DNA of 64,000 nucleotides from a bacterium (GCA_044869275.1 JBIOXB010000063.1:15303-79302), one strand, 5' to 3'; shown: positions 11,324-57,123, numbered from the stretch's first letter. Numbers and translations are program-made. Notes: generated from the letters alone by a model not told the origin.

Positions 11324-11465
11324 TGCCGCGCGATCGAGCAGGGAGACTGGATTCCTGGATTCCTGGATTATTGGAGTGTTGGAGTGGTAGAAAGGCATTA
11401 CTCCAATAATCCATAACTCCAATAATCCACCACTCCACCCATCCATGCGTTAAACTTCTCAATTC

Positions 11466-29150: not shown

Positions 29151-30536
29151 TTAGAAAGTATGTCCCAAAGCAATGTGAAAACGGAAATCGTCGCGGTCAA
29201 GCGGGTAGGCGAAATCGCAGCGCAACAATCCGATGACGGGCAGTTTCAAACGGAAACCGTAACCGGCCGACATAAAGAGCTCTTTTCCGGTTTCCGTATT
29301 TTCGAAATCGTTGATGTGGCCGGCGTCAAAAAACAGCGCCGCGCTCAGGGAAGGATTCTGCGGCGCACCGGCGAGAGGGAAACGCATTTCGATTTGGCCG
29401 AGCGCCATGTCAGTGCCCCAGCCCAGCGGCGTCAAGCTGCGCTCGGCATAGCCGCGCACGGAATAAGCGCCACCGAGGTAAAAACGCTCATAAAACGGCG
29501 CCGTTTCCGAAACGCGGCCGGCTTTGGCACGCACTGCCAGCACGTTTCTACCGAAAGCGCGATAGCCGCGTGCGTCAAAAATGTAGCGGCTGAAATCGTT
29601 GAAATCAGGCCCGGAATTTTTGAAGGTGCTTTCAAATTGCATGGCAGCCCACAATCCGTGGCGCGGAAAGGCGGGGTGGTCGCGGGTATCAAGCTGCAAG
29701 CGCAAAAATGCACTATTGCTTTTTGCGCGCGGCTCGGTCACCAGCGGCGGTGGCAGAGCGGTAATCGTGCTGTCCGTCGCAGCCAAACGCACCTCCGGCG
29801 CAGGCGTCCACGTGTTGAAATTGAGCCCAAGAGAGACATAGCGCGACCAGCCGCGATGGCCGGAGAACGCCAGCAGCAGATTGTCGTTCTGGACTTCCTG
29901 TATCGCTTCTTCGCTGTCTATATAATGAATAAAATTCTGATTGAAGGCTCCCAGCTTCAACTGGAAATCCAGGTTCGATCCGAACAGCTCTTGCTCGCGA
30001 TAATGCCAGTAGAAGCCCACGGTGCGGTCGGCGAAGATGAAGCGGCCGCCGCCGATGCCGCCGCCGCCGAAGAGATTGTCGAAGCGCACGCCGATCGGGA
30101 TCAAATACCAGCCTTCCAGCTCGCTGAAACCGCCGGCGATTTCCAGCCAGGGCCAGCGGCGCTCCTCGATTTCGATCACCATCACCACCTGGCCCGGCGC
30201 GCTGCCCGGCTTGGAGCTGAATTCGACGCGCTTGAAGAAATTGGTGGCCACGAGCGCGTCGTAATTCTGCGCGATCATTTCCGGCGTGATCGCCGCGCCT
30301 TCTTTCATGTTCAAATAGCGGCGAATCACCTGCGGTTTGGTTTTGGTCGCGCCCTGGATTTCGATGCGCTCGATGATGAGGGCTTGGTGGACCGTTTGAA
30401 TGGAGTGGGAGACGGGGAGACTGGGAGAAGGATGCGGCGCAGGCGTTTGCTGCGCGAAAGCCATCAAAGCTGGAATGATGAAGATAGTTATGAATTCCAG
30501 CAAGAAGATGTTTCTTTTTCGTTGCAATAAGTTCAT
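29151..30536 (-). CDS. Omp85-family (BamA/TamA-like) outer-membrane protein with one POTRA domain.
   Basis: Signal peptide plus a POTRA-like segment (IERIEIQGATKTKPQVIRRYLNMKEGAAI). The C-terminal beta-barrel ends ...FRFHIALGHTF (terminal aromatic). The stop lies 4 nt from the DUF4390-like start. Confidence 0.75.
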   Translation of the reverse strand: MNLLQRKRNIFLLEFITIFIIPALMAFAQQTPAPHPSPSLPVSHSIQTVHQALIIERIEIQGATKTKPQVIRRYLNMKEGAAITPEMIAQNYDALVATNFFKRVEFSSKPGSAPGQVVMVIEIEERRWPWLEIAGGFSELEGWYLIPIGVRFDNLFGGGGIGGGRFIFADRTVGFYWHYREQELFGSNLDFQLKLGAFNQNFIHYIDSEEAIQEVQNDNLLLAFSGHRGWSRYVSLGLNFNTWTPAPEVRLAATDSTITALPPPLVTEPRAKSNSAFLRLQLDTRDHPAFPRHGLWAAMQFESTFKNSGPDFNDFSRYIFDARGYRAFGRNVLAVRAKAGRVSETAPFYERFYLGGAYSVRGYAERSLTPLGWGTDMALGQIEMRFPLAGAPQNPSLSAALFFDAGHINDFENTETGKELFMSAGYGFRLKLPVIGLLRCDFAYPLDRDDFRFHIALGHTF

Positions 30537-30696
30537 GAAACAGAATCTAGTGAAAATATACCACACTGTAGCTTCATAGCCGCTGTCGACTGCGCGAATT
30601 TGACCTCAAATGGCCTATTTTGTTTGTGTTGTTCGGATGACAAAACAGGTTTCATCACATTTTTGCTATTTTCATGCCAAAAAACATGTTGAGACT

Positions 30697-31594: not shown

Positions 31595-34327
31595 TCATTT
31601 CTCCCCTAGACGCTCCAACGCCGCCAGCGCCTCTGGTACGTGCTCGCCCCAAGGGAAGCGGTCGAGGTATTCTTGATAACGCTGGCGGGCTTCGGAGGTG
31701 CGGCCAGCGGCCTCAAGGGCGTGGCTAAGTTTGAATATATAACGCGATAAGCGGAAAGGTCGCTGCTCGAGTTGAATACCAATCTTATATTCCGCTATCG
31801 CGTGTTCAGGTTGATTGAGATTTTCAGAATAAATGTCTGCTATACTAATGTGCGGTCCCGCGTACTCCTGATCGAGAGTAATAGCTTTTTGAAATTCTTC
31901 TAATGCAGCCTCGTAGTCGCCTTTTCTTAGCAAAGTGACCCCGAGATGGGCATGTGCCCACTCCAAATCTTCCTTTAATTCAATCGCTCGGCGTAAACAA
32001 ATTTCTGCTTCTTTAGAGTTTCCTAAATCATTGTAAGCCCTACCCAAGTTTCCCCAAAGCCATGCTTCATTGGGTGCTAATGTTAGACACTTCATACAAT
32101 GCTCGATTGAGATTTCAGGATTTCTGGCCTGTCGAAATGCCCAAGCAAGTAATCCTCTTAACTCAAAATCAACTGGGTTCTCATTTACTAAAGGCTCAAG
32201 AAATAAAATTGTTCTCTCTGAAAGCCGCAGACCAATGAGAAATATGGCAAATACGCTAAATGCTTTCGCCTTCTGACTATACACACGTTCAAAAAGCACT
32301 GGCAGTGCTCTGGTATCGGTTTTGCATTCAAGTGATAAAACGACAAGCATTTCTTCATATACTTTTCCAAACCATGCACTTTCTAAATCCTTGCTTAACT
32401 TTTGAATGAGAATTATGACCAATACATCAACAAATTTTCGATCAATTTCTTTCGCATAAACTGCACACTTCGCCGCCAGATACGGATCCCTCTTCATCAC
32501 CTCCCTCACCACTTCCGTCGCATTATCAAGCAACCCGCACACAAACACCAAAACTTCCGCCCATTCCGGATCGCCCACATGCTTCAGCACATATTCCAAG
32601 GATTGATGCAACGCCACTTCCCGCGCAAAGAAATACTCCTGCACAGCTTGATGAAAGAATCCCGTCTGCCCGGCACTTTCGCGCAACAGGCCGTGATAGA
32701 GAAATTCGCGATTGAGTGCCGCAACATTGAGATTGTCAGGTGCCTCTTTCTTGTTTTGCAATTCAGCGAGACGGGCAGACATCGCGGCGGCAGCCTCGTC
32801 CGCCGAAAGCAATGTGCGGCTAGTGCCCAGCCGCCATGCCAGCGCCGAGAGAATCTCCTTTTCTACGCGCACCGAGCCTGCGCCTTTCACGCGCGCCCAT
32901 TCGCTCAAATAGCGGTCGATAAAACGGTCAAAAAGCTGGGCGCGGTTTTGGGGCGGGTCGTCGCCAGCGCGCAGCTCATCGGCGAGCATCGTGAGCATGA
33001 GTGGATTGCGGCAAAGGTCGCGGGTGTATTCGTCCAGGCCTTTCCATGCAGCTTGCGCTTGGTCCGCACCGATTTCAATCTCTAGAACTTTGGAGGCATT
33101 GAAGCTGCCCAATCGCTCCAATTGAAATGTCACAAATTCGTGACGCAACTCGTCGCGATAGACGCCCGGCCGGCAGGTGACCACAAAGCGGTTTTGCGGA
33201 ATCTCATTGAGGAGATGGTGGATTTGATGTACGACTTCGTCATATGCCTCGCCGACTTCATTCAGTCCATCAAACAAAAGCAAACAGCCGCCGGCGGCGA
33301 GGCGCTTGCGTACGTCAACATCGTGCACGCCGCGCACGCTGGCGGTGAGGAGGCGCCAGAGGCCGTGTTTTGCATCTCCGCTGGAGATCGTGGGATACGC
33401 CGAGAGATCGAGGAAGATAGGCAGGTTGAAATCTTCCGGCTCATTCAGCCCTGGTTGCTGGCCTTCGCCGCGCCACACCGCATACTCAGCGGCCAGCTTT
33501 TTGAGCGAAGTGGTTTTGCCTGCGCCCGGCTCGCCGAGAATGAGCAAACGCGGAAACATTTTGACCGCGTTGCTCACTTTCATGTTGCGCGGCCGCTCGG
33601 CTTCCACCTCTTCGAGAAAAAGCGGGGGCAAATTGAGCGTGCGTAGGCGCAGCGGCCGAGCGGTTTTCTGTAACTCGGTTCGGCAATAGGCGAGATGTTC
33701 TGCAAAAGCGGAGAGGGGCGGTGCCTCTACCGGTCGTTCACCCGCAGTGGCCGGCCGGTGGCCGGCAGCGGGCACCAACTTCAATAACCAATCGGTAAGG
33801 TGATGCCGCAGCAGCGCGGCAAAATGCTCGGGGTCGCGATAAAGCGAGTAGAGTGCAAGATGCCCGGCTTCCACCTGTTTCTTGAACTCCAGAACTTTTT
33901 GCAATTGCGGGCCGGGATCGGTGAGAAAATCCGGATGCACCTCACGGAAATACAGCATGATCTCCGGCGCGCGCTCTTTGGCAAAGCGTTCACGAGCGAG
34001 GTTGAATTCTTCCAACGTGCCTGACTCTGCCTCACCGCTGGGCAAACCGAATCGCCGCCATAAAATGCCGAGGAATAAATCGCATTCTCGCACGAGGCGG
34101 TTGATCAATTCCTGGCTGCGCCCCATGCCGGGCGTGGCATGCGTTTCCCAGCCGACAGGCTCGAGATCGTAACCCTGTTTGTGCGCCACCGGCCGCAAGC
34201 TGAGGATTTCGTCGCGCGCTTTATCGCGCTCGGGCATGACGTCGCCGGGCGAGGCGATGAAAATTTTAAGCAATTGGATGGTTCGGCCGGGCATGGACGA
34301 TCTCAATACAAGTTCTCGTACTGCCAC
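31595..34327 (-). CDS. STAND NTPase, bacterial NLR-like: DUF4062-like N-terminal domain, NACHT ATPase, helical region, C-terminal TPR repeats.
   Basis: N-terminal LKIFIASPGDVMPERDKARDEI (DUF4062-like). Walker A GEPGAGKTT. Walker B LLLFDGLNEV. C-terminal TPRs (WLWGNLGRAYNDLGNSKEAEICLRRAIEL...). An alternative start at MPGRT is 11 codons in. Confidence 0.75.
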   Translation of the reverse strand: MAVRELVLRSSMPGRTIQLLKIFIASPGDVMPERDKARDEILSLRPVAHKQGYDLEPVGWETHATPGMGRSQELINRLVRECDLFLGILWRRFGLPSGEAESGTLEEFNLARERFAKERAPEIMLYFREVHPDFLTDPGPQLQKVLEFKKQVEAGHLALYSLYRDPEHFAALLRHHLTDWLLKLVPAAGHRPATAGERPVEAPPLSAFAEHLAYCRTELQKTARPLRLRTLNLPPLFLEEVEAERPRNMKVSNAVKMFPRLLILGEPGAGKTTSLKKLAAEYAVWRGEGQQPGLNEPEDFNLPIFLDLSAYPTISSGDAKHGLWRLLTASVRGVHDVDVRKRLAAGGCLLLFDGLNEVGEAYDEVVHQIHHLLNEIPQNRFVVTCRPGVYRDELRHEFVTFQLERLGSFNASKVLEIEIGADQAQAAWKGLDEYTRDLCRNPLMLTMLADELRAGDDPPQNRAQLFDRFIDRYLSEWARVKGAGSVRVEKEILSALAWRLGTSRTLLSADEAAAAMSARLAELQNKKEAPDNLNVAALNREFLYHGLLRESAGQTGFFHQAVQEYFFAREVALHQSLEYVLKHVGDPEWAEVLVFVCGLLDNATEVVREVMKRDPYLAAKCAVYAKEIDRKFVDVLVIILIQKLSKDLESAWFGKVYEEMLVVLSLECKTDTRALPVLFERVYSQKAKAFSVFAIFLIGLRLSERTILFLEPLVNENPVDFELRGLLAWAFRQARNPEISIEHCMKCLTLAPNEAWLWGNLGRAYNDLGNSKEAEICLRRAIELKEDLEWAHAHLGVTLLRKGDYEAALEEFQKAITLDQEYAGPHISIADIYSENLNQPEHAIAEYKIGIQLEQRPFRLSRYIFKLSHALEAAGRTSEARQRYQEYLDRFPWGEHVPEALAALERLGEK

Positions 34328-34501
34328 CTCAAGTACGGATCTTTGTGTGATTTTTTAAGCGCGTCATTCAGCAGGGGTCTGGTGTGGCACTAAGTTGACT
34401 CCCGACTTGGGTTGAGTACGAAATGCCGCACAAGATTCTTTCAGAATGACAGTGCTGGGTGTAGCATTAACCAATCGTTGTAGCGCAGCCATGACAATGC
34501 G

Positions 34502-37332: not shown

Positions 37333-37584
37333 AAGCGCTACCCCGTTTGGGTTGGTTCTGCTTGCCTCTTATAAATGTGACTGCCACGAAGGTGGGAATC
37401 TCCTCGCCCCTGCGACGAAGCCGGGAAGTTTCCGCATTCGCAGGAATACCATATGAATGAATCTCCACGTCGATTTTAAACTACATATTTTTCCCGCTCC
37501 GAGCAATTGTAAATTTTTGTAGTGCGTGTTCCAGAATTCTCTTGCAGGAGCGGCTAAATTTATGCGATTTTGGGCGACGATTAT

Positions 37585-37695
37585 CTTGACAATGTTAAGT
37601 TAAAATCGCGTCCTCACAATTTGTCATCCCGAAATTTCGGGATCTTCCCTGGGTTTGTGTGCAAGCCTCATGAGAAGAGTCCTACGGAATGACAT
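37585..37695 (+). repeat. Copy 1 of a ~110-bp structured intergenic element (TTGACAA leader, then nested hairpins).
   Basis: cttgacaatgttaagttaaaatcgcgtcctcacaatttgtcatcccgaaatttcgggatcttccct...cggaatgacatg. It contains the perfect palindrome ATCCCGAAATTTCGGGAT at the position where copies 2 and 3 have GATGCCGTAGGCATC and GATGCTGTAAGCATC. Confidence 0.6.
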
Positions 37696-37815
37696 GCGCT
37701 GGGATGCGCTGACGAGACTGGCCGCACGCTCTAAACATGAGACCGAATAACACGCATGCAACTTCGCAGAATGGCGTGCGTACAGATTGGCTGACACTTG
37801 CACGGGAGGAAAAAC

Positions 37816-38091
37816 ATGTTGGAATTGATCGCGCTCTTTGTAGTCATCACGCTGGCGTACGTGGCGCTCAAAATGCTGCTGCTCATTTTCAAGGTGGGCT
37901 TTTGGGCATTGACGCTGCCGTTGCAGGTTTTGCTGGGTGTGGTCGCGGCGCTCGTCGCCGTGGTCCTGATCCTGCCGCTGGCATTGATGGCGGGATTGTT
38001 CGGGCTGGTGCTGGCACCCCTGGCCCTGCTTTTGCCGTTGTTCCCTATTCTCTTGATTGCCGGCGGGCTCTATTTGCTGCTGAAATCATGA
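37816..38091 (+). CDS. Small (91 aa) highly hydrophobic membrane protein with 3 predicted helices, heading STPK cassette 1.
   Basis: GGGAGG RBS 6 nt upstream of the ATG. MLELIALFVVITLAYVALKMLLLIFKVGFWALTLPLQVLLGVVAALVAVVLILPLALMAGLF.... Confidence 0.45.
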   Translation: MLELIALFVVITLAYVALKMLLLIFKVGFWALTLPLQVLLGVVAALVAVVLILPLALMAGLFGLVLAPLALLLPLFPILLIAGGLYLLLKS

Positions 38092-38316
38092 TTGCGATCC
38101 GGCCGGGGTGATGCTTGACATTTCTGAGAAAAATCTGTAACATTCGCCTGTCAGGATTACGCAAGAGGGCCGGACACCTCCTACCTAACTATCGCATAAA
38201 CTCGATTCCACTTTTTTCATCGTCGGCCGGGGGCCGTAACTGTCCTTTCTCACTGGACCCGGATCAAGCCCGGCGACGCCTGAGGTCTCGACCAGACACA
38301 ACAATGGGGCAGGATC

Positions 38317-41238
38317 ATGATCGGCCAGACGATTTCACATTACCAAATCATCGAAAAGCTCGGCCAGGGCGGCATGGGAAAGGTGTATAAAGCCTTCGAC
38401 ACCAAGCTCATCCGCACTGTCGCACTCAAGTTTCTGCCCGAGGAGGTGACCCGCGAGCCAGAGTCTATCGATCGCTTCATTACCGAAGCGCAAGCCGCCT
38501 CTGCGCTGGATCATGCCAATATCTGCGCCATTCACGAGATCAACGAAACCGAAGACGGGCAGATGTACATTGTGATGGCCTGCTATGAGGGCGAGACGCT
38601 CCAGCAGAAAGTCAGGAGCGGACTCCCATCGTTTGAAAGCGCGATCGAAATAGCTCTGCAAATTGCCCGCGGGCTGGAACGGGCACACGAGGCCGGCATT
38701 ATTCATCGCGACATCAAGCCGTCGAATATCATCATCACCAAGCGTGGCGAGGTCAAGATCATTGATTTCGGCCTGGCCAAGCTGACCATGGGGCAATCGC
38801 GCTTGACCAAGAGTGGCAACATGCCGGGCACACTGGCCTATATGTCCCCGGAACAGGTGCAGGGACAGCCGGTTGATTATCGCACGGATCTCTGGTCGCT
38901 GGGGGTGATCATGCACGAAATGCTGACCGGGCAATTGCCGTTCCGCGGCGAGAATGAGGCCGCCGTCGTCTATGCCATCGTCAACGAACCATTGCAGCCG
39001 ATCACGCATTTGCGCGAAGATATTCCCGTGGAATGGGCGAACCTCATTGGCAAGTGCCTGGAAAAGGATTTGTCGCTGCGCTACCTCGGCGCCGGCGAAG
39101 TCATTGCCGATGTGCTCCGGCTGAAAAGGCGGGCGGAAAAGCACGAAGGGGCGGAGCGAGGCAAAGAAAGCCGTACGCTGTCTGCCATCATGTTCACCGA
39201 CATGGTGGGTTACAGCGCACTCACCCAAAAAAACGAAGAGCTGGCGCTCGCGCTTCTCGACGAACACCGGCGGCTATTGCGGCCGTTGTTTCACGAGCAC
39301 GGCGGAAAAGAAATCGAAGCCGTCGGCGACGCTTTTTTTGTGGAATTTGCCAGCGCTTTGCAGGCCACGCGCTGCGCTGTCGGCATTCAAAGAAAATTAT
39401 TTGAGCGCAATCGCGAGGCCTCCGCCGACCGGCGCATCAAGCTTCGTATCGGCCTGCATATTGGTGACGTGGTGCACACCGGCAAGCACGTGCACGGTGA
39501 CGGCGTCAACATCGCCGCCCGCCTGGAGCCACTGGCGGCCCCAGGTGGAATTTGTCTCTCTCAAGATGTGGTGCGGCAAATTCAGAACAAAATCGGGCTG
39601 CCGCTGCGCAAACTGGGACGTGGCGAGTTGAAGAACATCGAGACGCCGCTGGAGGTTTACCGCATCGTTTTGCCCTGGGAGCGGAAACGGGCGCCTTTGC
39701 TTGAAAAGCTCAGCTTTGTTTTGCAACAGCGCAGGGCCTATGTGTATCGCTTCACCGCCATGGTGCTCGTCGCTGTCCTTCTGCCCGTGGCTGTTTATTT
39801 GGAATGGGGCCCCAAAACAGATTCACCTTCTCCCGACCTGAAACGGATCGCCGTGCTGCCTCTGACCAACATTAGCTCCGACCCGCACGATGAATACTTT
39901 GCGGAGGGCATGACCGAGGAGCTGATTGCCACGCTCTCGCGCGTCGGCCAATTTCGAGTGATCGCCCGCAATTCGGTGATGCGATACAAAGCGAGCAGCA
40001 AAACCACGGCAGAAATCGGGGCAGAGTTGCAAGTGGGAACGGTATTGACGGGCAGCGTGCGCAAATCCGGCAACTCTTTGCGCATTGCCGTGCAGCTCGT
40101 GGAAGCGCGCCGGCAGGAGCCTTTGTGGTCGCAGCAATATGACCGCGAATTCCAAGACATCTTTGCCATTCAAAGTGACATTGCCCGAAGCGTCGTGGAA
40201 GCCTTGCGGGTGAGGTTGGTTGACGATGAAGAGCTGCGTCTCGCAAGGCGGTCGCCGCGCAACATGGAAGCCTACACCCTCTACTTGCGCGGGCTTTATC
40301 ACTGGAACAAGCGAACGGCGAGCGACATCAAAAAGGGAATGGATTATTTCCATCAAGCGCTGGCAAAAGATTCAACCTATGCCCAGCCGTATGCCGGCTT
40401 GGCCGATTCTTACACGGTATTGGGAACGGTCGAATATGGCGAATTGCCGGCGGCGCAAGCGATGCTGCAAGCCAGGGAGGCGGCAGAGAAGGCGCTGGCA
40501 TTGGACCCGCAATGCGCCGAAGCACACGCCGCACGCGCGAACCTGTTTTATTCGTATGAATGGGATTGGCAGAATGCCGAGCGCGAATTCACGCGTGCCC
40601 TCGATCTGAATCCCAATTACGCGATCGCCCACCATTGGTATGCGCACTATTTATGCTCGCAGGGTCGGCTCAAGGAAGCCATGTTAGAGATCAGACACGC
40701 CCAAGAATTGGACCCGCTCTCCTTGATCATCAACACGGCAGTGGGAATGGTCTTCTATTACCAGCGCCAGCCCGAGCTGGCACTGGCGCAATTGCACAAA
40801 ACTCTGGAATTGGACTCCAGCTTCGCCGCCGCACTGTTGCAATTGGGAGTGGTGCACGTATATCAGCACCAGGCGGAAGAAGCCATGGCGGCATATCAAA
40901 GAGCCATAAATCTGATTGGCGCCAACCCCATCTCACTGAGTTTGCTGGCGCATGCCCAGGGCGTGTTCGGACGGCGCGCAGAGGCGAACAAGATTCTCAG
41001 TGAGTTTCGTAAACCTTCGATGCGCCGCTATGTTTCGGCTTCAGATATGGCGCTCGTTTATTTGGGATTGGGCGACAAAGATCAAGTTTTCGTCTGGCTG
41101 GATAAGGCGTGCGTCGAGCGTTCAAATTATCTCATTTATCTCAATGTGGAACCGTTGGTTGACAGCCTGCGTGAAGATCCGCGCTTCGCTGCTCTGTTGC
41201 AGAGGGTGGGAGTGCCTCGTTTGGTCAAATCATTGTGA
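38317..41238 (+). CDS. Multidomain Ser/Thr protein kinase fused to a class III adenylate/guanylate cyclase domain, a transmembrane helix, a TolB-N-like domain and C-terminal TPR repeats.
   Basis: Kinase motifs: GQGGMGKVYKA, HRDIKPSNI, DFG, SPE. Cyclase motifs: FTDMVGYSALT, VGDAFFVEF, RIGLHIGDV, GDGVNIAARLE. TM: MVLVAVLLPVAVYL. TolB-N-like: IAVLPLTNISSDPHDEYFAEGMTEELI. An upstream TTGACA-17-TAACAT promoter lies at ~38116. Confidence 0.85.
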   Translation: MIGQTISHYQIIEKLGQGGMGKVYKAFDTKLIRTVALKFLPEEVTREPESIDRFITEAQAASALDHANICAIHEINETEDGQMYIVMACYEGETLQQKVRSGLPSFESAIEIALQIARGLERAHEAGIIHRDIKPSNIIITKRGEVKIIDFGLAKLTMGQSRLTKSGNMPGTLAYMSPEQVQGQPVDYRTDLWSLGVIMHEMLTGQLPFRGENEAAVVYAIVNEPLQPITHLREDIPVEWANLIGKCLEKDLSLRYLGAGEVIADVLRLKRRAEKHEGAERGKESRTLSAIMFTDMVGYSALTQKNEELALALLDEHRRLLRPLFHEHGGKEIEAVGDAFFVEFASALQATRCAVGIQRKLFERNREASADRRIKLRIGLHIGDVVHTGKHVHGDGVNIAARLEPLAAPGGICLSQDVVRQIQNKIGLPLRKLGRGELKNIETPLEVYRIVLPWERKRAPLLEKLSFVLQQRRAYVYRFTAMVLVAVLLPVAVYLEWGPKTDSPSPDLKRIAVLPLTNISSDPHDEYFAEGMTEELIATLSRVGQFRVIARNSVMRYKASSKTTAEIGAELQVGTVLTGSVRKSGNSLRIAVQLVEARRQEPLWSQQYDREFQDIFAIQSDIARSVVEALRVRLVDDEELRLARRSPRNMEAYTLYLRGLYHWNKRTASDIKKGMDYFHQALAKDSTYAQPYAGLADSYTVLGTVEYGELPAAQAMLQAREAAEKALALDPQCAEAHAARANLFYSYEWDWQNAEREFTRALDLNPNYAIAHHWYAHYLCSQGRLKEAMLEIRHAQELDPLSLIINTAVGMVFYYQRQPELALAQLHKTLELDSSFAAALLQLGVVHVYQHQAEEAMAAYQRAINLIGANPISLSLLAHAQGVFGRRAEANKILSEFRKPSMRRYVSASDMALVYLGLGDKDQVFVWLDKACVERSNYLIYLNVEPLVDSLREDPRFAALLQRVGVPRLVKSL

Positions 41239-41268
41239 CAGGCCTTAATAGAATGCTTCTTGCACGTC

Positions 41269-42777
41269 ATGACTTCTGAACTCGAAAAAATGGAGAGCAT
41301 TTTCGAGCTGGCCGATCTGCTTGGCCGGCAGAATGATTTTCAGGAAATCCTGCGCCTGGTGGCACAGAAGGCAGCGAGCTTGTTGCAAGCCGAAACCGCT
41401 TCGATCATGATGATCAATCCGCAAACCCGGCACACGGTCAAGACGATTCTGCAAGAAGGTGATGGCGTGGAGGATCAGCGTTATCATACGGTGCACACGC
41501 ATGTCGGCGGCTGGGTGATCAAGCAGCAACAGCCTTTTGCCAGTGCCGATCTCAAAACCGATGCACGTTTTGCCAAGAAGCTCTTCGAGCATTCTCCCGT
41601 CGCCGCGGTGCTGGCCGCGCCGTTGCGCAGCGAGGGTGTGGTGCTCGGCGCTTTGATCCTGATGAATGCCGCAGCGGCGGTGCTGGAAACACAGCTGGCG
41701 GCGCTGCAAAAATTCGCCGCCGTGGTCTCGCCATTTTTGCGCAATGTACAAAAGCTGCAGCAGTATTTCGATGCCCCTTTGCCGGAAACCGCATTGTTGT
41801 CGAAATACGAAGCCGCGGGCTTGCTGGGCAAAAGCCGGAAGTACGTCGGAATGCTCAAGGCCATGGAGGCCGCTGCGCGTTGCGAGGTGCGCGTGTTGCT
41901 GGAGGGGCAAAGCGGGACCGGCAAGGAATTGATCGCCAAAGCCATCCATCGTTTCAGCCCGCGCGGCGGCCGGCCTTTTATCGCCATCGATTGCGGCGCG
42001 ATTGCGGAGCATCTGATCGAGAGTGAGCTCTTCGGTCACGTGAAAGGAGCCTTCACCGGCGCCAGCAGTGAGCGCACCGGCTTGCTGGAAGAGGGCCATC
42101 ACGGCACGCTGTTCATGGACGAGATTGCGAATCTTTCCTTGGAGATGCAGGCCAAGTTTATGCGCGTGCTGCAAACCGGCGAAATCCGGCCCGTGGGCGG
42201 AAATAAAACCCGGCTGGTCGACGTGCGTATTATTTCCGCGAGCAGCACCCCGCTGCGAAAATTGGTGGAGGCGCAAAAATTCCGTGAAGATTTGTTTTAT
42301 CGCCTGCACGTGTATCCGGTGCAGGTGCCTGCGCTCGATGAGCGCCAGGAGGATATTCCTCTTCTGGCCAATTATTTTTTGAAGAAATTCGCCGCGCAGC
42401 AGGGCAAGAAAGTGGAAGCCTTTCACGAAGAAATCGCGGAGTTCATGCAACAACGCCACTGGGCCGGCAATGTTCGCGAGTTGGAAAACTTCGTGGAACG
42501 CCTGGTTACCATGGTCACGCCGGAAACCACCGTCTTGGAGCATGCGCATCTGCCCGCCGAGCTGCAAAAAGAAATGAAGAAGTTCGCGGGCGCTTTGCCA
42601 GAGCCGGCGGCCAGCAAATCCCTGAACGAGTTCTTGTCCGAATATGAAGAGCAAGTGCTGCGGCAAGCTTTGCGAGCGCACGGCTGGAATCAATCCAAGA
42701 CCGCACGCGCGTTGAAAATCTCCGAACAAACTTTGCGCTATAAAATGGGGAAGATGGGAATTGCGAGGGGTTCGTAA
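41269..42777 (+). CDS. Sigma-54-dependent transcriptional activator (EBP) with an N-terminal GAF domain instead of a receiver domain, an AAA+ core and a C-terminal Fis-type HTH.
   Basis: GESGTGKE (Walker A), GAFTGA (sigma-54 contact loop), an ESELFGH-type motif, C-terminal QSKTARALKISEQTLRYKM. The N-terminal ~170 aa show a GAF-like pattern. Confidence 0.9.
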   Translation: MTSELEKMESIFELADLLGRQNDFQEILRLVAQKAASLLQAETASIMMINPQTRHTVKTILQEGDGVEDQRYHTVHTHVGGWVIKQQQPFASADLKTDARFAKKLFEHSPVAAVLAAPLRSEGVVLGALILMNAAAAVLETQLAALQKFAAVVSPFLRNVQKLQQYFDAPLPETALLSKYEAAGLLGKSRKYVGMLKAMEAAARCEVRVLLEGQSGTGKELIAKAIHRFSPRGGRPFIAIDCGAIAEHLIESELFGHVKGAFTGASSERTGLLEEGHHGTLFMDEIANLSLEMQAKFMRVLQTGEIRPVGGNKTRLVDVRIISASSTPLRKLVEAQKFREDLFYRLHVYPVQVPALDERQEDIPLLANYFLKKFAAQQGKKVEAFHEEIAEFMQQRHWAGNVRELENFVERLVTMVTPETTVLEHAHLPAELQKEMKKFAGALPEPAASKSLNEFLSEYEEQVLRQALRAHGWNQSKTARALKISEQTLRYKMGKMGIARGS

Positions 42778-43143
42778 AGCAAAGGTTGGTACTGTCATGA
42801 CCAGCCTCATGCAAAAATCCGCGTTTTTTCTGCGAAGCAAACTCCACTAAAAACAGGTCTTCTTTTCTCCGCAAGTTTTTTGCGAACTTCTTTCTTGATT
42901 TACTCACTTTCAACCGAGCTATCCTCTCCCGCTGCTTCGTTGTTCCTGCCGAACTTAAAAGCCTTCAACCCACATCATTCCCCGTGGCATGATCTTCGAA
43001 TGTCATGTTCGCGTGCAACACGATGATCTCAGCGCAATTTCGCTCACAGGTGAGCGGTCCGTCAAATCTCCACGCGAGAGCGTGATAATTTCATCCCATG
43101 CGGGCATGGTCGAATCAATTGCATCACACAGTGCGAGGGCCAG

Positions 43144-48648: not shown

Positions 48649-48692
48649 CCCCTGGAGGTCTCAGATTCTTGTAACTTCAGGTACATATTAAA

Positions 48693-48915
48693 GGCAAAAC
48701 TATTCGGGGCAAAACAATTAAACACAAAAGAAACTTTGAATAGTTTTACCATTAATAGTTTTGCCATTTGGGGAAAACACCTGATCGTCACAATTTCTCT
48801 AAAACATAGGAAGTTTGAAATGAACAGTGATTTACGACTAACGATTTGCGATTTCGGATGTTGATGTATCCTGCGTAAATCGACAATCGTAAATCGGCAA
48901 TCGTAAATCAACGGC
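48693..48915. repeat. AT-rich 285-bp spacer with dyad and tandem repeats: GGCAAAACTATT / AATAGTTTTGCC inverted pair, and 3 tandem 14-mers CGTAAATC(G/A)(A/G)C(A/G)(A/G)(T/C) with an inverted copy upstream.
   Basis: cgtaaatcgacaat | cgtaaatcggcaat | cgtaaatcaacgg at 48874-48914. gatttacg (the reverse complement) at 48830-48837. ggcaaaactatt at 48693 vs aatagttttgcc at 48763. Confidence 0.6.
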
Positions 48916-50487: not shown

Positions 50488-50523
50488 ATGCACCCGCGGC
50501 AGTTCATGTCTGTGATTACGGGA

Positions 50524-50632
50524 TTGTCAACTTGACAACGCAATGTTAAAGCCGCACCTCCTCAACTTGTCATGCCGTAGGCATCTTCCCTAGTTTTCGC
50601 GCAGCTTTTCGGGAAGATTCATACAGCATGAC
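50524..50632 (+). repeat. Copy 2 of the structured intergenic element.
   Basis: attgtcaacttgacaacgcaatgttaaagccgcacctcctcaacttgtcatgccgtaggcatcttccctagttttcgcgcagcttttcgggaagattcatacagcatgacc. Confidence 0.6.
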
Positions 50633-50712
50633 CAACAAAAGGAGCGCACCAAAACCAACGTAGTACTGCCAAGCCAGTAATACTCATTCAGAACCACGCG
50701 TGGAGAAACAAA

Positions 50713-51477
50713 ATGCGACCCCAAATTCATCACAGGGCTATGCTGCTCTTGCTAGGAGTTTTGCCTCTGCAAGTCGATCTCGCGCCGCAGGATAGTGGCA
50801 ACACCACCGTTCAGCTCTACGGCGGGCTCGGACAATATGCTTTGGTCAACCGCGGCTGCGAAGGCCAAGTGCTCAGCAAGCATGCCATTCCATTTCAGGA
50901 ATTGAGCGCCGGGGTTGAGCACAAAACTGCCTCGCCTGTGCGTCTGGGTATCAGAAGCAGCTATATTCTTGACAAAAAGGAAACGTTTTCCGGTGAAAGT
51001 TACTATGATCCCTCACGCCAGGCGTATTTCTCACGGACCGAATTCGTTGCTCGGGAGAATCTCACGATCAATCCCTATCTCAATTTGGAGTGGAAGCCCA
51101 TCGGCATCGGCGGCGGGTACTTCTGGTCGCGTTCTCCTCTTACTGCAGGCGAGAATTCCGAGGATGTAGACTCACCCCTCAGTGCATATCTTCGTTTGGG
51201 AAGCCGGCGCGCGCTCTATTTCAGCTCGTCTTTTCTGCACCATATTCCAGTTTATACCGGCGGTTACTTCCAGCTCGGATTGGGCTCCGGCAAGAATCCC
51301 AACTTCGATTGGTGGCTGGGATGGGGATTTGCCGGTCCGTATGACGGACCCGATATTGCGCTCTTCAAATCTGATATTCGATTACAAAGGCATTTCACGC
51401 TTAATGTGCTCGGACGCGCGGGCTTTACCGAAGGCATCTCGGAAAGCGCCATTGGCATCGGGTTGACATATCGGTGA
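50713..51477 (+). CDS. Secreted hypothetical protein, possibly an outer-membrane beta-barrel.
   Basis: Signal-peptide-like N-terminus. Alternating hydrophobic, Gly/Tyr-rich C-terminal half ending ...GIGLTYR. No family recognised. Confidence 0.4.
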   Translation: MRPQIHHRAMLLLLGVLPLQVDLAPQDSGNTTVQLYGGLGQYALVNRGCEGQVLSKHAIPFQELSAGVEHKTASPVRLGIRSSYILDKKETFSGESYYDPSRQAYFSRTEFVARENLTINPYLNLEWKPIGIGGGYFWSRSPLTAGENSEDVDSPLSAYLRLGSRRALYFSSSFLHHIPVYTGGYFQLGLGSGKNPNFDWWLGWGFAGPYDGPDIALFKSDIRLQRHFTLNVLGRAGFTEGISESAIGIGLTYR

Positions 51478-51648
51478 GAATCTCGATATCCAGCGGATAG
51501 AGGGCACATGAATACCCAGAACTCATAGTTGTTCAGCTGTAAACGGATTAAGCGGATTGAGCAGATGATGGTTTGGGGACGAATCCTTGATTATCCGTTT
51601 AATCCGCTCAATCCGCTTACTAAGACAAAAGCTAAAAAGAGTACGCAA

Positions 51649-52146: not shown

Positions 52147-52467
52147 AATTCAAAATCAATCACATTCAAGAATTGCGCGCCGGGATTGGGCACGGAATCG
52201 CCTCGAGGTTGCGGCGGGGTATCAGAAGCGGCGATGTTCATGACAAAGAGCAAGTGTCTACGGGCGAGAATCGGCGCGCTTGACATTCTCCTCTAAAAGC
52301 TGCTATATTTACCTGTGAGGAACCTGCAGTCAAGTGGTTTTTTTCCCCTTCCTTCCCGCAACGACTCAGTTTTATTTTGCTTGTTATAGACAGCCAGAGC
52401 CGGCCTCGTCGCCAGCTTCAGCAAGTTTCTGAACTGCAATAGCTATTTCTATTTTTACGGAAGCGCC

Positions 52468-54687
52468 ATGATCGGCCAAACCATTTCACATTACAGAATT
52501 TTGGAAGAGCTAGGCCGTGGCGGCATGGGCGTGGTGTACAAAGCCCTCGATACCAGGCTCAACCGCACCGTTGCGCTCAAATTTCTCCCGCCGGATTTAA
52601 CGCGCGATCAGGAAGCCATTGATCGTTTTATCAACGAGGCGCAAGCGGCTTCGGCGCTCGATCACACGAATATCTGCACCATTTACGAGATCAACGAGAC
52701 GGAAGTTGGGGACATGTTCATTTGCATGGCTCACTATGCCGGTGAAACGCTGCAACAAAAAGTGGCCAATGGCCGGTTGTCAGTGGCCAGTGCAATTGGC
52801 ATTGCCTTGCAGGCGGCCCAAGGCTTGGAGAGAGCGCATGAGGCCGGCATCACGCATCGCGATATCAAGCCTTCCAACCTCGTCATCACTTCGCGCGGCG
52901 AGGTCAAGATCATTGATTTCGGTCTGGTCAAGCTGGCCGAACCTTCCCGTTCAACCAAAGCTTCGGGGACCGTGGCTTATATGTCGCCGGAGCAGGTACA
53001 AGGCAAACCGGTGGATCAGCGCACGGACATTTGGTCACTCGGCGTTGTGCTCTATGAAATGCTCACCGGACGATTGCCCTTCCTCGGCGAAAGCGAGCAA
53101 GTGGTGATGTATGCCATTGTCCATGAAGACGCCGGCCCGATCCCGGTGGCATCGGGGGGCAGCGGCGTGCCCATGGCATTGGAACAAATCGTCAACACCG
53201 CCATGGCAAAGAATCCCGACGAACGCTACCAGCATGTGGAGGAGATGATTGCCGCCCTGCGCGCGCTCAAGCACAAGCTCGAATCCGGGCAGTTCAACGC
53301 AGCTCAAGCTGCCATCGCGGTGTTGCCTTTTGTAGATCTGAGCCCGCAAAAAGATCAAGAGTACTTTTGTGACGGCATGACCGAGGAACTCATCGCCGCC
53401 TTGGCGAAGATCGAAGGCTGGCGGGTGGTTTCAAAAACCTCGGCATTTGCGTGCAAAGGGAAAGAACAAGATCTCCGCAGGGTCGGTGAGTTGCTCGGCG
53501 TCAAATATGTTCTTGAAGGCAGCGTGCGCAAGGCCGGTGATAGGCTGCGTATCGCAACGCAGCTTACCAACGTCGCCGACGGCTTTCCGCTTTGGTCGGA
53601 GCTTTATGATCGCCAGCTGCACGACGTGTTCGCCATTCAGGATGATATCGCCAAGGCGATTGTCAACAAGCTGAGGCCGGCGGGAGAGCTGGCGCCCCGG
53701 CAGGTGGTGCGTTACACGCAAAGCCCTGCCGTTTACAATTTGTATTTACAGGGGCGCTTTCACTTGAACAAGCGCACTGAAGCCGGTCTGCAAAAAGGCG
53801 TAGCCTTTTGCGAGCAAGCCATTGCTCTGGAGCCGGCCTATGCTCCGGCGTACGCGGGCCTGGCGGACGGTTTTGCCTTACTCGGCTTTCAGGGCTTTGT
53901 GGCGCCCAAAGAAACGATACCCAAAGCCAAAGCCGCAGCCGAAAAGGCGCTGGCCATTGACGAGTCTCTGGCCGAGGCGCATACCTCGCTCGGGTGCATT
54001 CGGGCCGTGTATGATTGGGATTGGGATGCATCCGCCCACGAATTTGAGCGGGCTATCGCCCTCAATCCCAACTCTGCAATGGCACATTATTGGTATGCCG
54101 TGTGGTATTTGTTGCTCACCGGCCAGTTCGATCTGTGTTCCACTGAAATCAAAAAAGCGCAAGAGCTGGATCCGTTGTCCATGGTTTTGCGCGCGGGCAT
54201 TGGTTGGCAGCTTTACTTTGCGCGGCAGTTCGAGCAGGCGGCGCAGGCACTCGAGCGCGCTTTGGAAATGGATGAATACTACGTTTTTGCCCGTGACCTG
54301 CTCGGCCAGGTCTACGCGCAGCTCGGCAGGTATCAGCAGGCTATCACTGAGCTTGAACACGCCGTCGCTCTTTCCCGCGGCTGCGCGCTGAGCCTGCGCG
54401 CGCTGGGCCATGCTTATGGCCTTGCCGGCAAACGCGCGGAAGCGCAGCACGTGCTCGACGAATTGCTGGTGCGCGGACAGCGCAGCTATGTCTCGTCGTA
54501 CGATATTGCGCTGGTTTATGCCGGCATGGGAGACAAAGATCAGGCTCTCACCTGGTTGGAAAAGGCCTACGGGGAGCACAACGGTTGGCTGGGCTTTCTC
54601 AACGTGGAGCCGCGGCTCGACAATTTGCGCGAGGAGGCGAGATTCGCGGTGCTGCTCAGAAACGTGGGATTGCATGAGTTTCTATGA
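52468..54687 (+). CDS. Ser/Thr protein kinase with a TolB-N-like domain and C-terminal TPR repeats. Paralog of 38317..41238 but lacking the cyclase domain.
   Basis: Kinase motifs GRGGMGVVYKA, HRDIKPSNL, DFG. TolB-N-like IAVLPFVDLSPQKDQEYFCDGMTEELIAAL. TPR block. The N-terminus MIGQTISHY[QR]I[IL]E[KE]LG[QR]GGMG is near-identical to the paralog. A TTGACA-18-TATATT promoter lies at 52280-52309. Confidence 0.85.
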   Translation: MIGQTISHYRILEELGRGGMGVVYKALDTRLNRTVALKFLPPDLTRDQEAIDRFINEAQAASALDHTNICTIYEINETEVGDMFICMAHYAGETLQQKVANGRLSVASAIGIALQAAQGLERAHEAGITHRDIKPSNLVITSRGEVKIIDFGLVKLAEPSRSTKASGTVAYMSPEQVQGKPVDQRTDIWSLGVVLYEMLTGRLPFLGESEQVVMYAIVHEDAGPIPVASGGSGVPMALEQIVNTAMAKNPDERYQHVEEMIAALRALKHKLESGQFNAAQAAIAVLPFVDLSPQKDQEYFCDGMTEELIAALAKIEGWRVVSKTSAFACKGKEQDLRRVGELLGVKYVLEGSVRKAGDRLRIATQLTNVADGFPLWSELYDRQLHDVFAIQDDIAKAIVNKLRPAGELAPRQVVRYTQSPAVYNLYLQGRFHLNKRTEAGLQKGVAFCEQAIALEPAYAPAYAGLADGFALLGFQGFVAPKETIPKAKAAAEKALAIDESLAEAHTSLGCIRAVYDWDWDASAHEFERAIALNPNSAMAHYWYAVWYLLLTGQFDLCSTEIKKAQELDPLSMVLRAGIGWQLYFARQFEQAAQALERALEMDEYYVFARDLLGQVYAQLGRYQQAITELEHAVALSRGCALSLRALGHAYGLAGKRAEAQHVLDELLVRGQRSYVSSYDIALVYAGMGDKDQALTWLEKAYGEHNGWLGFLNVEPRLDNLREEARFAVLLRNVGLHEFL

Positions 54688-54805
54688 ATATTTGACTCTT
54701 GATGAGGCGGCGATGGTCAAGCCCAATTGGAGGATGGATTCCTCCATCATGGTTGCTGGTTGAGCGGATAGGGCGTTGTTTTTCCGGTCGCGATTCACGA
54801 GATTT

Positions 54806-54923
54806 GAGTCATTGACTATCTTAACACTGATAAGCTAAAATCTCGCCATCTCAATCTGTCATGCTGTAAGCATCTTCCCCAGGTTGCGTGCAGGCATCTT
54901 GGGAAGATTCCTGCGGAATGACA
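54806..54923 (+). repeat. Copy 3 of the structured intergenic element, sitting between STPK2 and its GAF-sigma-54 activator.
   Basis: cattgactatcttaacactgataagctaaaatctcgccatctcaatctgtcatgctgtaagcatcttccccaggttgcgtgcaggcatcttgggaagattcctgcggaatgaca. Confidence 0.6.
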
Positions 54924-55107
54924 AATAATAGGGGTTTGTGAGGCCAACTTAAGATTGTCAAACTACGAAGCGTTGAGAAAAGTTCGTGCTGGCACTGCAG
55001 GCTTTCGCATGCTGCAAAGAGACAGATAACTGTATCGGCGGGTCAAGGGATTTCGCTCAACAATCCAAGGATCCCTCGATCCATTTATCCCTATCCACGT
55101 CATTGCC

Positions 55108-56697
55108 ATGGAACCAGAGAAACTGGAACACCTGCTCGAGCTGGCCGCCATTCTCGGCCAACAGAATGATTTTCAAGAGACCCTGCGCGTGGTGGCGCAG
55201 AAAGCGGCCAGTTTGCTGAACGCAGAAATCGCCATCATTGCCATGATCAACCCGCAAACCCGGCACACCGTGAAAACCCTCGTGCGCGAAGGCCGGGAAA
55301 ACGAAGCGGTGAAATGGCATGCCGTGCAAACTTACGTGAGCGGGTGGGTGATCAAAAACCAAAAACCTCTGGTGAGCGCAGACCTCAAAGCCGACCCGCG
55401 CTTCGCCAAAAACCTGTTCGAGGGCATCCCGGTCAAGTCGGTTCTGGCCGTCCCCCTGCGCGCCGAAGGCCTTACGCTCGGCGCCCTCATTTTGTTGGAT
55501 ATCAAACCGCTTCAGCCGCCTAACACCAAACACGAGCAACCCGCGATAGCAATTCAACCAAGATCAAGCATCCAGAATCAAGTATCGAGGACCGAGCCGC
55601 TCGACCACGCGTTATCCTATCTCGAAAGATTCGCCACCATCGCCGCGCCTTACCTGCGCAACGTGCAAAAAATCCAACAATATTTCGAGGCGCCCATCCC
55701 CGAGGCCACGTTGCTGGCAAAATACGCAGCGTTCGGCCTGCTGGGCAAAAGCAAAAAGTTCGTAGAGCTGCTGCAAGCCGTCGAAGCCGCTGGGCGCTGC
55801 GACGTGCGGGTTTTGTTGGAAGGCGAAAGCGGCACCGGTAAAGAGTTGATTGCCCGGGCCATTCATCGGCTCAGTAATCGCAGCGATCGACCCTTCATCG
55901 CTATTGACTGCGGCGCCATTCCCGAAAACTTGATTGAGAGCGAGCTCTTTGGCCACGTGAAAGGCGCCTTCACCGGCGCAAGCACTGAACGTAAGGGTCT
56001 GTTGGAAGAAGCCGAGGGCGGCACCCTGTTCATGGACGAAATAAACAACCTGCCCATGGAGATGCAAGCCAAGTTCATGCGCGTGCTGCAAGAGGGGGAA
56101 GTGCGCCCATTGGGAAGCAACAAAACGCGGCATGTCGATGTTCGCATTATTTCGGCGAGCAGCCTTTCATTGCGCGCGTTGGTGGAAGAGCAGAAATTTC
56201 GCGAAGATTTGTATTACCGTCTGCACGTCTATCCCGTTCACGTCCCTTCATTGGACGATCGTCAAGAAGACATTCCGCTTCTGGCCGGCTATTTCCTCAA
56301 AAAGTTTGCCGCCCAGCAGCGGAAACAAGCAGCGTCGTTTCACGAGGAAATGCTGGATTTCCTGCAGGAGCGCCATTGGGCCGGCAACATCCGCGAGCTG
56401 GAAAACTTTGTCGAGCGCCTGGTCGTGCTGGCGCCGCCAAACACGACGATCTTGGATCATGGCATTCTGCCTGAAGATCTGAGCAAGGAATTGAAGAAAA
56501 TTTCAGCGCGTTATGAATCTCGAGCCGTAATAAAATCTCTCCAGGAAAGTTTATCAGAGTTTGAAAAACAATTCATATGTCAGGCCTTGATCGCCAACAA
56601 CTGGAACCAGGTCAAAACCGCACGTCAATTGAAGATTGCCGAACAGACGCTGCGTTACAAGATGGGGAGGCTGGGGATCGAGAGGCCGAGCGGGTGA
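55108..56697 (+). CDS. Sigma-54-dependent activator with an N-terminal GAF domain. Paralog of 41269..42777.
   Basis: GESGTGKE, GAFTGA, C-terminal HTH (QVKTARQLKIAEQTLRYKM). The N-terminus LEHLLELAAILGQQNDFQETLRVVAQKAASLL aligns to EBP1. Confidence 0.9.
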   Translation: MEPEKLEHLLELAAILGQQNDFQETLRVVAQKAASLLNAEIAIIAMINPQTRHTVKTLVREGRENEAVKWHAVQTYVSGWVIKNQKPLVSADLKADPRFAKNLFEGIPVKSVLAVPLRAEGLTLGALILLDIKPLQPPNTKHEQPAIAIQPRSSIQNQVSRTEPLDHALSYLERFATIAAPYLRNVQKIQQYFEAPIPEATLLAKYAAFGLLGKSKKFVELLQAVEAAGRCDVRVLLEGESGTGKELIARAIHRLSNRSDRPFIAIDCGAIPENLIESELFGHVKGAFTGASTERKGLLEEAEGGTLFMDEINNLPMEMQAKFMRVLQEGEVRPLGSNKTRHVDVRIISASSLSLRALVEEQKFREDLYYRLHVYPVHVPSLDDRQEDIPLLAGYFLKKFAAQQRKQAASFHEEMLDFLQERHWAGNIRELENFVERLVVLAPPNTTILDHGILPEDLSKELKKISARYESRAVIKSLQESLSEFEKQFICQALIANNWNQVKTARQLKIAEQTLRYKMGRLGIERPSG

Positions 56698-56745
56698 TTG
56701 GATTACTGGATTATGGTATTGTTGGCGGTGTTTAGGGGTGTTATT

Positions 56746-57123
56746 TTATACCAATGGAAAATTGAAGCACATAAAGTCGGAATAGGGGAAAATAGCCATG
56801 ATGGAATACACGCGCTTAAGGACAAGGCTTCCAGTCGAATGATTTCGAGATGGGCGGTGAGCGCCAGCCAATCCCCAAAGTTCAGACCAACGTGGCTGGT
56901 CATTCACGCGCAAGCCCTTGGTCAGGCCGACGTCGAGCACGTGGCGATTGTGGTGGGTGGCGACCGAGATCGCAGTGATCCCTCCTTCCACCACGCCGTA
57001 CCCTTGAAAAGGATAGCGGTCGAGTTTAAATACCTGCAACTCGCCGAGATTTGCGAGAGATTGTCCGGAGTCCTGGATCAGAAACTCCCGCACCGTCTTG
57101 CTGCACAATTGTAGACTGTCCAC
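56746..57123 (-). pseudogene. Possible gene remnant in the lower-GC island boundary.
   Basis: 125-aa ORF with no start context or motif, in a ~50% GC block. The opposite strand carries a similar orphan ORF (56698..57114). Either may be a fragment. Confidence 0.2.

Follow-up and report, generated by a model that had tools for sequence, protein, structure and literature searches.

Can a eukaryote-like protein kinase take the place of the usual sensor of a sigma-54 activator, and, where two such genes lie together beside an accessory operon, is that operon what they control? The question is raised by a 64,000-nucleotide (nt) stretch of bacterial DNA (GCA_044869275.1 JBIOXB010000063.1:15303-79302, read on one strand and called the window below), which carries two cassettes, each composed of a gene for a Hanks-type Ser/Thr protein kinase (STPK) and a gene for a sigma-54 activator, or enhancer-binding protein (EBP): STPK1 and EBP1 form cassette 1, STPK2 and EBP2 cassette 2 (Table 1). 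The switches classically known for sigma-54 activators are His-Asp phosphorelay, small ligands and anti-activators. From the comparisons described here, we incline to the view that each cassette is an operonic signaling module in which the Hanks kinase acts on the GAF-domain EBP, functionally analogous to a two-component system. If this is true, a Hanks kinase hard-wired to a receiver-less GAF activator would constitute a fourth, eukaryote-like route into enhancer-dependent transcription.

An initial annotation of the window had described two kinase and EBP pairs sharing gene order and orientation, and all four plus-strand open reading frames (ORFs) were found with the boundaries it gave, as was the N-terminal sequence, MIGQTISHY[QR]I[IL]E[KE]LG, that it reported for both kinases. 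STPK1 and STPK2 are 59% identical in the kinase domain and 43% identical over the C-terminal 457 amino acids (aa), EBP1 and EBP2 are 65% identical over their full length, and the DNA of the two cassettes is 71-76% identical in long stretches, far beyond chance. By these measures the cassettes are paralogous pairs, and the paralogy is real. As judged by alignment, the duplicated unit is promoter, kinase and EBP, because promoter-like sites occur at homologous positions before the two kinase genes and align with each other; these sigma-70-type sites are the best matches of their kind in the regions upstream of the kinases, and the GCTTGACATT...TAACAT block before STPK1 aligns both with its counterpart in an orthologous locus (L003, described below) and with the STPK2 site. 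EBP1 starts 21 nt past the STPK1 stop codon, and 420 nt separate STPK2 from EBP2, a gap that contains the third copy of a repeat element. A Logan contig encodes the identical EBP2 protein.

Table 1. Features of the 64,000-nt window, numbered from its first nucleotide
Feature	Position	Strand	Remarks
STPK1	38317-41238	+	973 aa; Hanks kinase, class III cyclase, membrane helix, TolB-N-like, TPR
Class III nucleotidyl cyclase domain in STPK1	39184-39633	+	aa 290-439; Pfam Guanylate_cyc
EBP1	41260-42777	+	505 aa from TTG (ATG at 41269); GAF - AAA+ - HTH_8
STPK2	52468-54687	+	739 aa; Hanks kinase joined directly to TolB-N-like + TPR
EBP2	55108-56697	+	529 aa; GAF - AAA+ - HTH_8
Thr-rich NPxTxxTxKT motif in GAF, EBP1	41416-41445	+	invariant in 24 homologues
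Thr-rich NPxTxxTxKT motif in GAF, EBP2	55249-55278	+	invariant in 24 homologues
Sigma-70-type promoter-like site before STPK1	38115-38143	+	TTGACA-17-TAACAT; 10/12 matches
Sigma-70-type promoter-like site before STPK2	52280-52309	+	TTGACA-18-TATATT; TG extension; 11/12 matches
Repeat copy A	37563-37705	+	upstream of small membrane-protein gene 37816-38091
Repeat copy B	50510-50645	+	upstream of secreted-protein gene 50713-51477
Repeat copy C	core ~54798-54935	+	inside 369-nt insertion between STPK2 and EBP2
369-nt insertion	54739-55107	+	flanked by 5-bp ATGGA (54734-54738; 55108-55112)
Weak repeat copy	34354-34501		fourth copy in window
Encapsulin shell gene, family-1-like	57791-58777	+	downstream of EBP2
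Giant ORF	58903 to beyond 64000 (L001 4048-10284)		runs off window; 2078-aa protein

The association of the two genes extends well beyond the window. Related loci were sought with a GAF-domain alignment of both EBPs, in order to keep generic AAA+ similarity out, and the kinases in these loci were assigned by tblastn and ORF analysis. The genome collection contained five such loci, two of them from the unclassified metagenome-assembled genome (MAG) JBOHQX01, the closest relative (~80% nt identity), which has orthologues of both cassettes: L003 corresponds to cassette 1 and L002 to cassette 2. The remaining genome-collection loci belong to Calditrichia, Calditrichota and KSB1 MAGs, and a metagenome collection supplied 26 additional loci. 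Of 23 loci that could be evaluated, 15 have a Hanks kinase gene directly upstream of the EBP gene and on its strand. With STPKs making up ~4% of flanking genes, the binomial probability of such a count is ~7e-16, a value that treats as independent loci that are not fully so, and the adjacency exceeds the local kinase density ~15-fold. The pairing is seen in no fewer than 10 separate clades and persists at GAF identities down to 37-45%, where the flanks are wholly different, and in about a dozen loci the two genes overlap or are separated by 75 nt or less (e.g., 21 nt in W1, 0 nt in L021, an overlap in L017, and a 20-nt overlap in L035). Elsewhere, the contig ends within the C-terminal part of the kinase (L010), or a TPR-bearing ORF that clusters with the kinases lies at the contig edge (L019, L020, L022 and L024, the last three with other genes inserted between this ORF and the EBP gene); L028 has no kinase in its ~1.9 kb of upstream sequence. 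Among distant members drawn from a representative library, one has a kinase gene that overlaps the EBP gene by 20 nt (P0029), one has a kinase gene, a small gene and then the EBP gene (P0054), and one has no kinase (P0040). The EBP subfamily itself is small, with 44 representative clusters below 1e-30, and a search for homologous proteins with the GAF region returned only 14 fragments.

Kinase and activator also appear to have traveled together. Identity matrices for the kinase domains and the GAF domains of 16 pairs are correlated (Mantel r = 0.74; 0 of 5000 permutations reached as high a value), and the correlation is retained (r = 0.72) after removal of the two orthologue pairs. Because the two matrices are correlated, we conclude that the kinase and EBP genes are inherited and duplicated together. 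The initial annotation had made its proposal depend on the synteny of the cassette pairs in related genomes, and the pairs are indeed conserved there; recurrence in related loci, short or overlapping gaps and the Mantel correlation all support the kinase and GAF-EBP as a functional unit. By this evidence, the cassettes apparently belong to a conserved and hitherto undescribed gene-pair family of Calditrichota/KSB1-like bacteria. Full-text searches of the literature found no description of an STPK-GAF-EBP module, which is weak negative evidence. The sensor part of the paired kinases is variable, being a membrane helix with TolB-N-like/TPR in some, a soluble TolB-N-like/TPR module, an NB-ARC/TPR STAND module, or a PD40 beta-propeller with TPR in others. 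At three loci (L007, L008 and L016), two tandem Hanks kinases precede a single GAF-EBP gene, an arrangement suggesting that one activator can receive input from more than one kinase.

Both components retain the residues that their activities would require. The Pfam kinase model (Pkinase, PF00069) matches STPK1 with 191 bits (E 2.5e-56) and STPK2 with 176 bits (E 1.1e-51), and the Hanks domain spans aa 9-256 and 9-255, respectively. The catalytic motifs GxGxxG, VALK, HRDIKPSN and DFG are intact in STPK1, and the Gly-rich loop, the VAxK Lys, HRDxKxxN, DFG and the [AS]PE that ends the activation loop are intact in STPK1, STPK2 and all 15 of 15 paired homologues. For the activators, the earlier assignment as receiver-less GAF proteins stands: Pfam detects GAF, Sigma54_activat, AAA_lid_14 and HTH_8 in both EBPs, and neither Response_reg nor FHA domains. 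Sigma54_activat (PF00158) scores 214 and 232 bits against a cutoff of 20.2, and the C-terminal Fis-type helix-turn-helix (HTH) domain HTH_8 (PF02954) scores 46.8 and 37.1 bits against a cutoff of 22. Walker A (GxSGTGKE) is intact in both proteins, and GAFTGA is found at aa 263-268 of EBP1 (42046-42063) and aa 286-291 of EBP2 (55963-55980). Since the recognition helix of the HTH, EQTLRYKM, is identical in EBP1 and EBP2, the two may recognize similar DNA and serve one shared regulon rather than separate targets.

The C-terminal half of the kinases had been described as TolB-N-like followed by TPR. TPR repeats are present in both kinases according to Pfam; the TolB-N-like assignment is weakly supported. 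Pfam does not match TolB_N in either kinase, and a search of PDB sequences with the TolB-N-like segment gave no match; the support comes from the NCBIfam TolB model, of which an N-terminal portion matches STPK1 residues 510-630 (E 3.6e-6), together with partial matches of the C-terminal regions of HilA/EilA and CadC to the C-terminal module (NCBIfam). The earlier layout was also incomplete, in that it overlooked two features of STPK1, a single membrane helix (aa 479-497) and, between the Hanks kinase and this helix, a class III nucleotidyl cyclase domain, as well as the absence of both from STPK2. No hydrophobic segment occurs in STPK2, whose TolB-N-like module begins at aa 283, directly after the kinase domain; its orthologue in L002 and a homologue in L014 have the same arrangement, again without a membrane helix. 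Since it has no hydrophobic segment, STPK2 must, by prediction, be soluble, with its TolB-N-like/TPR part (the putative sensor) in the cytoplasm.

We suspect that the C-terminal module of the kinase, which would be periplasmic (TolB-N-like/TPR) in STPK1 and cytoplasmic in STPK2, receives a signal, and that the kinase then exerts direct control over its cognate EBP, most likely through phosphorylation of Thr in the GAF domain or in the linker between GAF and AAA+. The candidate site is the Thr-rich NPxTxxTxKT, part of a longer motif, I-x-M-I-N-P-x-T-x-x-T-x-K-T, that is invariant in the family. The N-terminal region of EBP2 was modeled by AlphaFold as a GAF fold (predicted local distance difference test [pLDDT] 76, predicted template modeling score [pTM] 0.72), and the motif follows closely on strand beta-1, where the confidence of the model is low; we treat it as a candidate for either a phospho-acceptor or a ligand site. 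Phosphorylation would relieve repression of the AAA+ ATPase by the GAF domain and thereby switch on sigma-54 promoters, and EBP1 and EBP2 may feed two inputs into one regulon. The substrates of bacterial STPKs are usually hard to assign, and clean one-kinase/one-substrate pairs are rare; the cassettes, if they work in this way, would provide such a pair from little-studied phyla. We speculate further, and with a good deal less assurance, that undescribed one-to-one Hanks kinase/GAF-EBP pairs are widespread in Calditrichota/KSB1-like bacteria, that the NPxTxxTxKT loop replaces the receiver Asp as phospho-acceptor, that kinases with interchangeable sensors drive sigma-54 transcription directly, and that several paralogous pairs per genome converge on one regulon. 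The GAF domain of EBP2 and of its orthologue also carries a Ser/Thr/Pro/Gln-rich insert of 33 aa (aa 132-164) that is absent elsewhere.

Several observations weigh against direct signaling from kinase to EBP. The Thr-rich motif may equally be a ligand-binding or structural element rather than a phospho-site, given that the model has low confidence there. In some loci the kinase gene has another orientation or place (divergent in L012, downstream in L005 and L018), and others lack a kinase next to the EBP (L004, L033). Nor is the kinase subfamily confined to positions beside an EBP; STPKs elsewhere in these loci show as much similarity. No kinase-EBP fusion occurs among the top 150 family representatives, the long matches in that search being multi-GAF histidine kinases or HD proteins. 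Finally, no convincing sigma-54 promoter could be tied to the module, either near the cassettes or at a consistent place in 30+ loci, and no rpoN gene lies within the 64-kb window.

Known systems resemble the cassettes in part. GAF-type EBPs (NifA, FhlA, NorR and Aquifex Nlh1) have the same order of GAF, AAA+ with GAFTGA, and Fis-type HTH without a receiver, and in NifL-NifA the sensor gene likewise lies directly upstream in one operon. The upstream partner here, however, is a Hanks Ser/Thr kinase and not a PAS/histidine-kinase-like anti-activator. NtrB-NtrC systems follow the same logic: genes for a sensor kinase and a sigma-54 activator share an operon, the two are inherited and duplicated together, and the sensor domains vary; but the cassettes have neither histidine kinase nor Asp receiver, and phosphate would be transferred to Ser/Thr of the GAF domain or linker. 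In myxobacteria, Hanks-type kinases are regarded as inputs to sigma-54 EBPs; both gene families are expanded there, and the EBPs read phospho-Thr through an FHA domain. The present EBPs differ in having GAF without FHA, in the one-to-one operonic arrangement of kinase and EBP, and in coming from a Calditrichota/KSB1-like phylum. Membrane STPKs and regulators that carry a TolB-N-like + TPR sensor, including cyclase-TPR proteins, are also comparable: the C-terminal module of the kinases, with IAVLPF...EYF..GMTEEL followed by TPRs, is a partial match to the TolB N-terminal, HilA/EilA and CadC models, yet in STPK2, L002 and L014 no membrane helix separates it from the kinase, and there it cannot be periplasmic. 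GAF-type EBPs and STPK input into sigma-54 networks were, then, already known separately; what is new, apparently, is a conserved one-to-one operon of STPK and GAF-EBP. Anti-phage kinase systems (PD-T4-6, MADS mad6 and BREX PglW) were rejected as relatives, matching only through the generic kinase domain at aa ~1-295 (PADLOC, NCBIfam; MAD6 reached 155 bits against a cutoff of 460), and so was an RtcR-type CARF activator, in that only the AAA+-HTH part of RtcR matches and there is no CARF domain.

The likeness to NifL-NifA bears on an alternative that we regard as unlikely, in which the kinase binds the GAF or AAA+ domain stoichiometrically, as a partner switch, and does not phosphorylate the EBP, its catalytic activity being reserved for autophosphorylation or other substrates. 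The gene order, with a sensor gene upstream of a cotranscribed GAF-AAA+-HTH activator, is that of nifL-nifA. The best full-length NCBIfam alignment of the EBPs is to NifA (TIGR01817; 333.7 and 352.6 bits), the closest PDB fold match to the EBP2 GAF model is the NifA GAF domain (8jrc), with Aquifex Nlh1 (4g3k) also listed, and coinheritance of kinase and EBP fits any direct physical partnership. The EBPs are nevertheless not NifA: their scores fall far below the cutoff of 528.85, no nif genes occur in the window, and their GAF domains have the invariant NPxTxxTxKT as a motif of their own. That motif argues against a partner switch, as does the strict conservation of catalytic residues in every paired kinase, which a pure binding partner would not need.

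The initial annotation took each cassette to be the dedicated regulator of the next operon, EBP1 acting on a lipid-modification cluster and EBP2 on an encapsulin/giant-protein island, and this we now consider doubtful. The neighbors themselves are as it described them. Downstream of EBP1 are genes for an LCM methyltransferase, a fatty-acid desaturase, an alpha/beta hydrolase, an EEP-family protein and a GMC oxidoreductase, and downstream of EBP2 are the encapsulin gene and the giant ORF. Position favors the proposal, with the LCM methyltransferase gene 366 nt after the end of EBP1 and the encapsulin gene 1.1 kb after the end of EBP2, both on the same strand as the EBPs, and a gene for a protein secreted by the type IX secretion system (T9SS) follows the EBP gene in a few other loci. 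In the closest relative, however, similarity stops within ~15 nt of each EBP stop codon, and neither the lipid cluster nor the encapsulin gene is adjacent to the EBPs: in L003 the genes that follow EBP1 include those for an amidohydrolase and a Rho-like protein, and L002 has a GH42-like gene ~1.1 kb after EBP2, in place of the encapsulin and giant genes. A related GH42-like gene (42% aa identity) is found in the window's genome only after the encapsulin and the 2078-aa protein. Shared gene order lies upstream, running NACHT - methyltransferase - aconitase - small membrane protein - STPK1 - EBP1 for cassette 1 and L003, and 254-aa secreted protein - STPK2 - EBP2 for cassette 2 and L002. No downstream gene family is common to the 28 loci compared, where synteny is only local and confined to one close clade; neither intergenic region through which the neighbors would be controlled (42778-43143 and 56698-57790) has an adequate GG-N10-GC promoter; and the identical recognition helices argue for one DNA target. 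Taken as they stand, these comparisons indicate that the target promoters of the EBPs are probably not those of the adjacent operons, and they warn that the lipid cluster and the encapsulin island should not be annotated as targets of the cassettes. The 2078-aa product of the giant ORF has a single Pfam match, a weak one to Peptidase_C70 (AvrRpt2-like) near residue 1600.

The sigma-54 site was sought more widely. As had been stated before, there is no canonical promoter (TGGCAC-N5-TTGCA) near the cassettes. Scanning for TGGCAC-N5-TTGCW with up to two mismatches gave 60 matches against 47 expected, none of them at the proposed targets, and neither a weighted GG-N10-GC scan of the window and all loci nor a scan of the intergenic regions downstream of the EBPs found a site at those targets or at a consistent place in 30+ loci. 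Near-misses with the wrong spacing, at 54990 (TGGCAC..GCTTTCGCA), 57520 (TGGCAC-N11-TTGCA) and 43107 (TGGTCG-N6-TTGCA), were set aside. The best sigma-54-like sites in the window, both near chance level, are TGGCGCGTCATTTGCA (16875-16890, plus strand), in 517 nt of intergenic DNA ahead of a polyprenyl synthetase gene (17230), and TGGCATGAAAATAGCA (30679-30664, minus strand), ~98 nt upstream of an Omp85-family gene (29151-30566, minus strand).

For cassette 1 only, the cyclase domain raises the idea that STPK1 makes cAMP or cGMP and that the GAF domain of EBP1 binds it, an idea to which we give little credence. The domain is well supported (Guanylate_cyc, 56.1 bits against a cutoff of 21.9, E 4.6e-15; PDB 3mr7, E 1.4e-31), its FTD, GDA and VNIAAR segments align with 3mr7 and Ma1120, and the metal-binding Asp and the Asn/Arg residues are kept, so that a cyclase with these residues intact adjoins a GAF-EBP gene; we take the residues to have their usual roles in metal binding, in the transition state and in specifying the purine. 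Several ligand-binding GAF domains are also among the fold matches of the EBP2 model, with the cAMP-bound GAF of Lcd1 (5w10) near the top. Cyclases canonically specify their substrate by a residue pair, Lys/Asp for ATP and Glu/Cys-Ser-Gly for GTP. STPK1 has neither, Glu334/His391 replacing the Lys/Asp of 3mr7 and Ma1120, as is also the case in its L003 orthologue, so both activity and product are uncertain. The cyclase is, moreover, limited to the STPK1/L003 lineage, and the GAF subfamily and its invariant residues are unchanged in pairs that have no cyclase. It is equally improbable that kinase and EBP adjoin merely by shared ancestry in kinase-rich genomes, the GAF domain sensing a small ligand of its own: STPKs are abundant in these loci, tandem kinases included, and the members without an adjacent kinase and the lack of fusion proteins would fit, but an adjacency ~15-fold above local kinase density, in genes that overlap or nearly abut, has outlasted GAF divergence to 37-45% identity amid completely different flanks.

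The repeat element is best considered apart from the cassettes. Each cassette had been said to be headed by small membrane or secreted genes and by a copy of this repeat. Such genes do lie upstream of both, but they are not homologous between the cassettes, and the copy said to head cassette 2 sits 1.8 kb upstream, ahead of two unrelated secreted-protein genes. The three strong copies have in common a core of ~140 nt, which holds a long imperfect palindrome (TGTCATGCCGTAGGCATCTTCCC ... GGGAAGATTC..ATGACA), and all are plus-oriented, 70-175 nt upstream of a plus-strand gene. Copy A is absent from the orthologous site of L003, copy B has a partial counterpart at L002 1-92, and the insertion that carries copy C is absent from L002, where kinase and EBP are 73 nt apart; further copies are present in L002 and L003. 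This insertion is placed exactly at the EBP2 start codon and has stranded the old GGAGG-ATG upstream (54730-54738). Because copies A and C are absent at orthologous sites, the repeat is, on this evidence, a mobile insertion resembling miniature inverted-repeat transposable elements (MITE) or repetitive extragenic palindromic (REP) sequences and not a component of the cassette; its copies are dispersed, present or absent at orthologous sites, and, at copy C, bounded by a 5-bp target-site duplication, although clear terminal inverted repeats were not seen. The same absences led us to drop the repeat as an enhancer site for the EBPs. Rfam gave no family at gathering or E-value thresholds, only chance miRNA-hairpin matches, and a known RNA was likewise rejected. 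Since copy C carries TTGACT-18-TAAAAT (54812-54841) directed at EBP2, the latter may have gained a separate promoter from the inserted element.

Just upstream of the STPK2 promoter-like site, a 103-nt fragment (52165-52267) is 75% identical to 50894-50996 within the gene for the 254-aa secreted protein, and it is, from this similarity, the remnant of a partial duplication; a 165-aa gene between the 254-aa gene and the fragment is partly deleted in L002. Upstream of cassette 1, 31595-34327 (minus strand) encodes a 910-aa STAND protein with DUF4062, NACHT and TPR, conserved in L003, the N-terminal 170 residues of which match the PADLOC candidate defense model PDC-S60. Other intergenic inverted repeats consist of short tandem motifs, among them TGGATTCC repeats and GGCAAAAC..ATTAAA; they occur at 11348-11445, 13134-13197, 48690-48768 and 51532-51636, and L003 contains a counterpart of the third at 3180-3253. 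The window opens with an SprA-like gene of type IX secretion (51-3194, plus strand), and Por_Secre_tail proteins are encoded beside the EBP in several related loci; together these fit a source in the FCB group (Calditrichota/KSB1-like).

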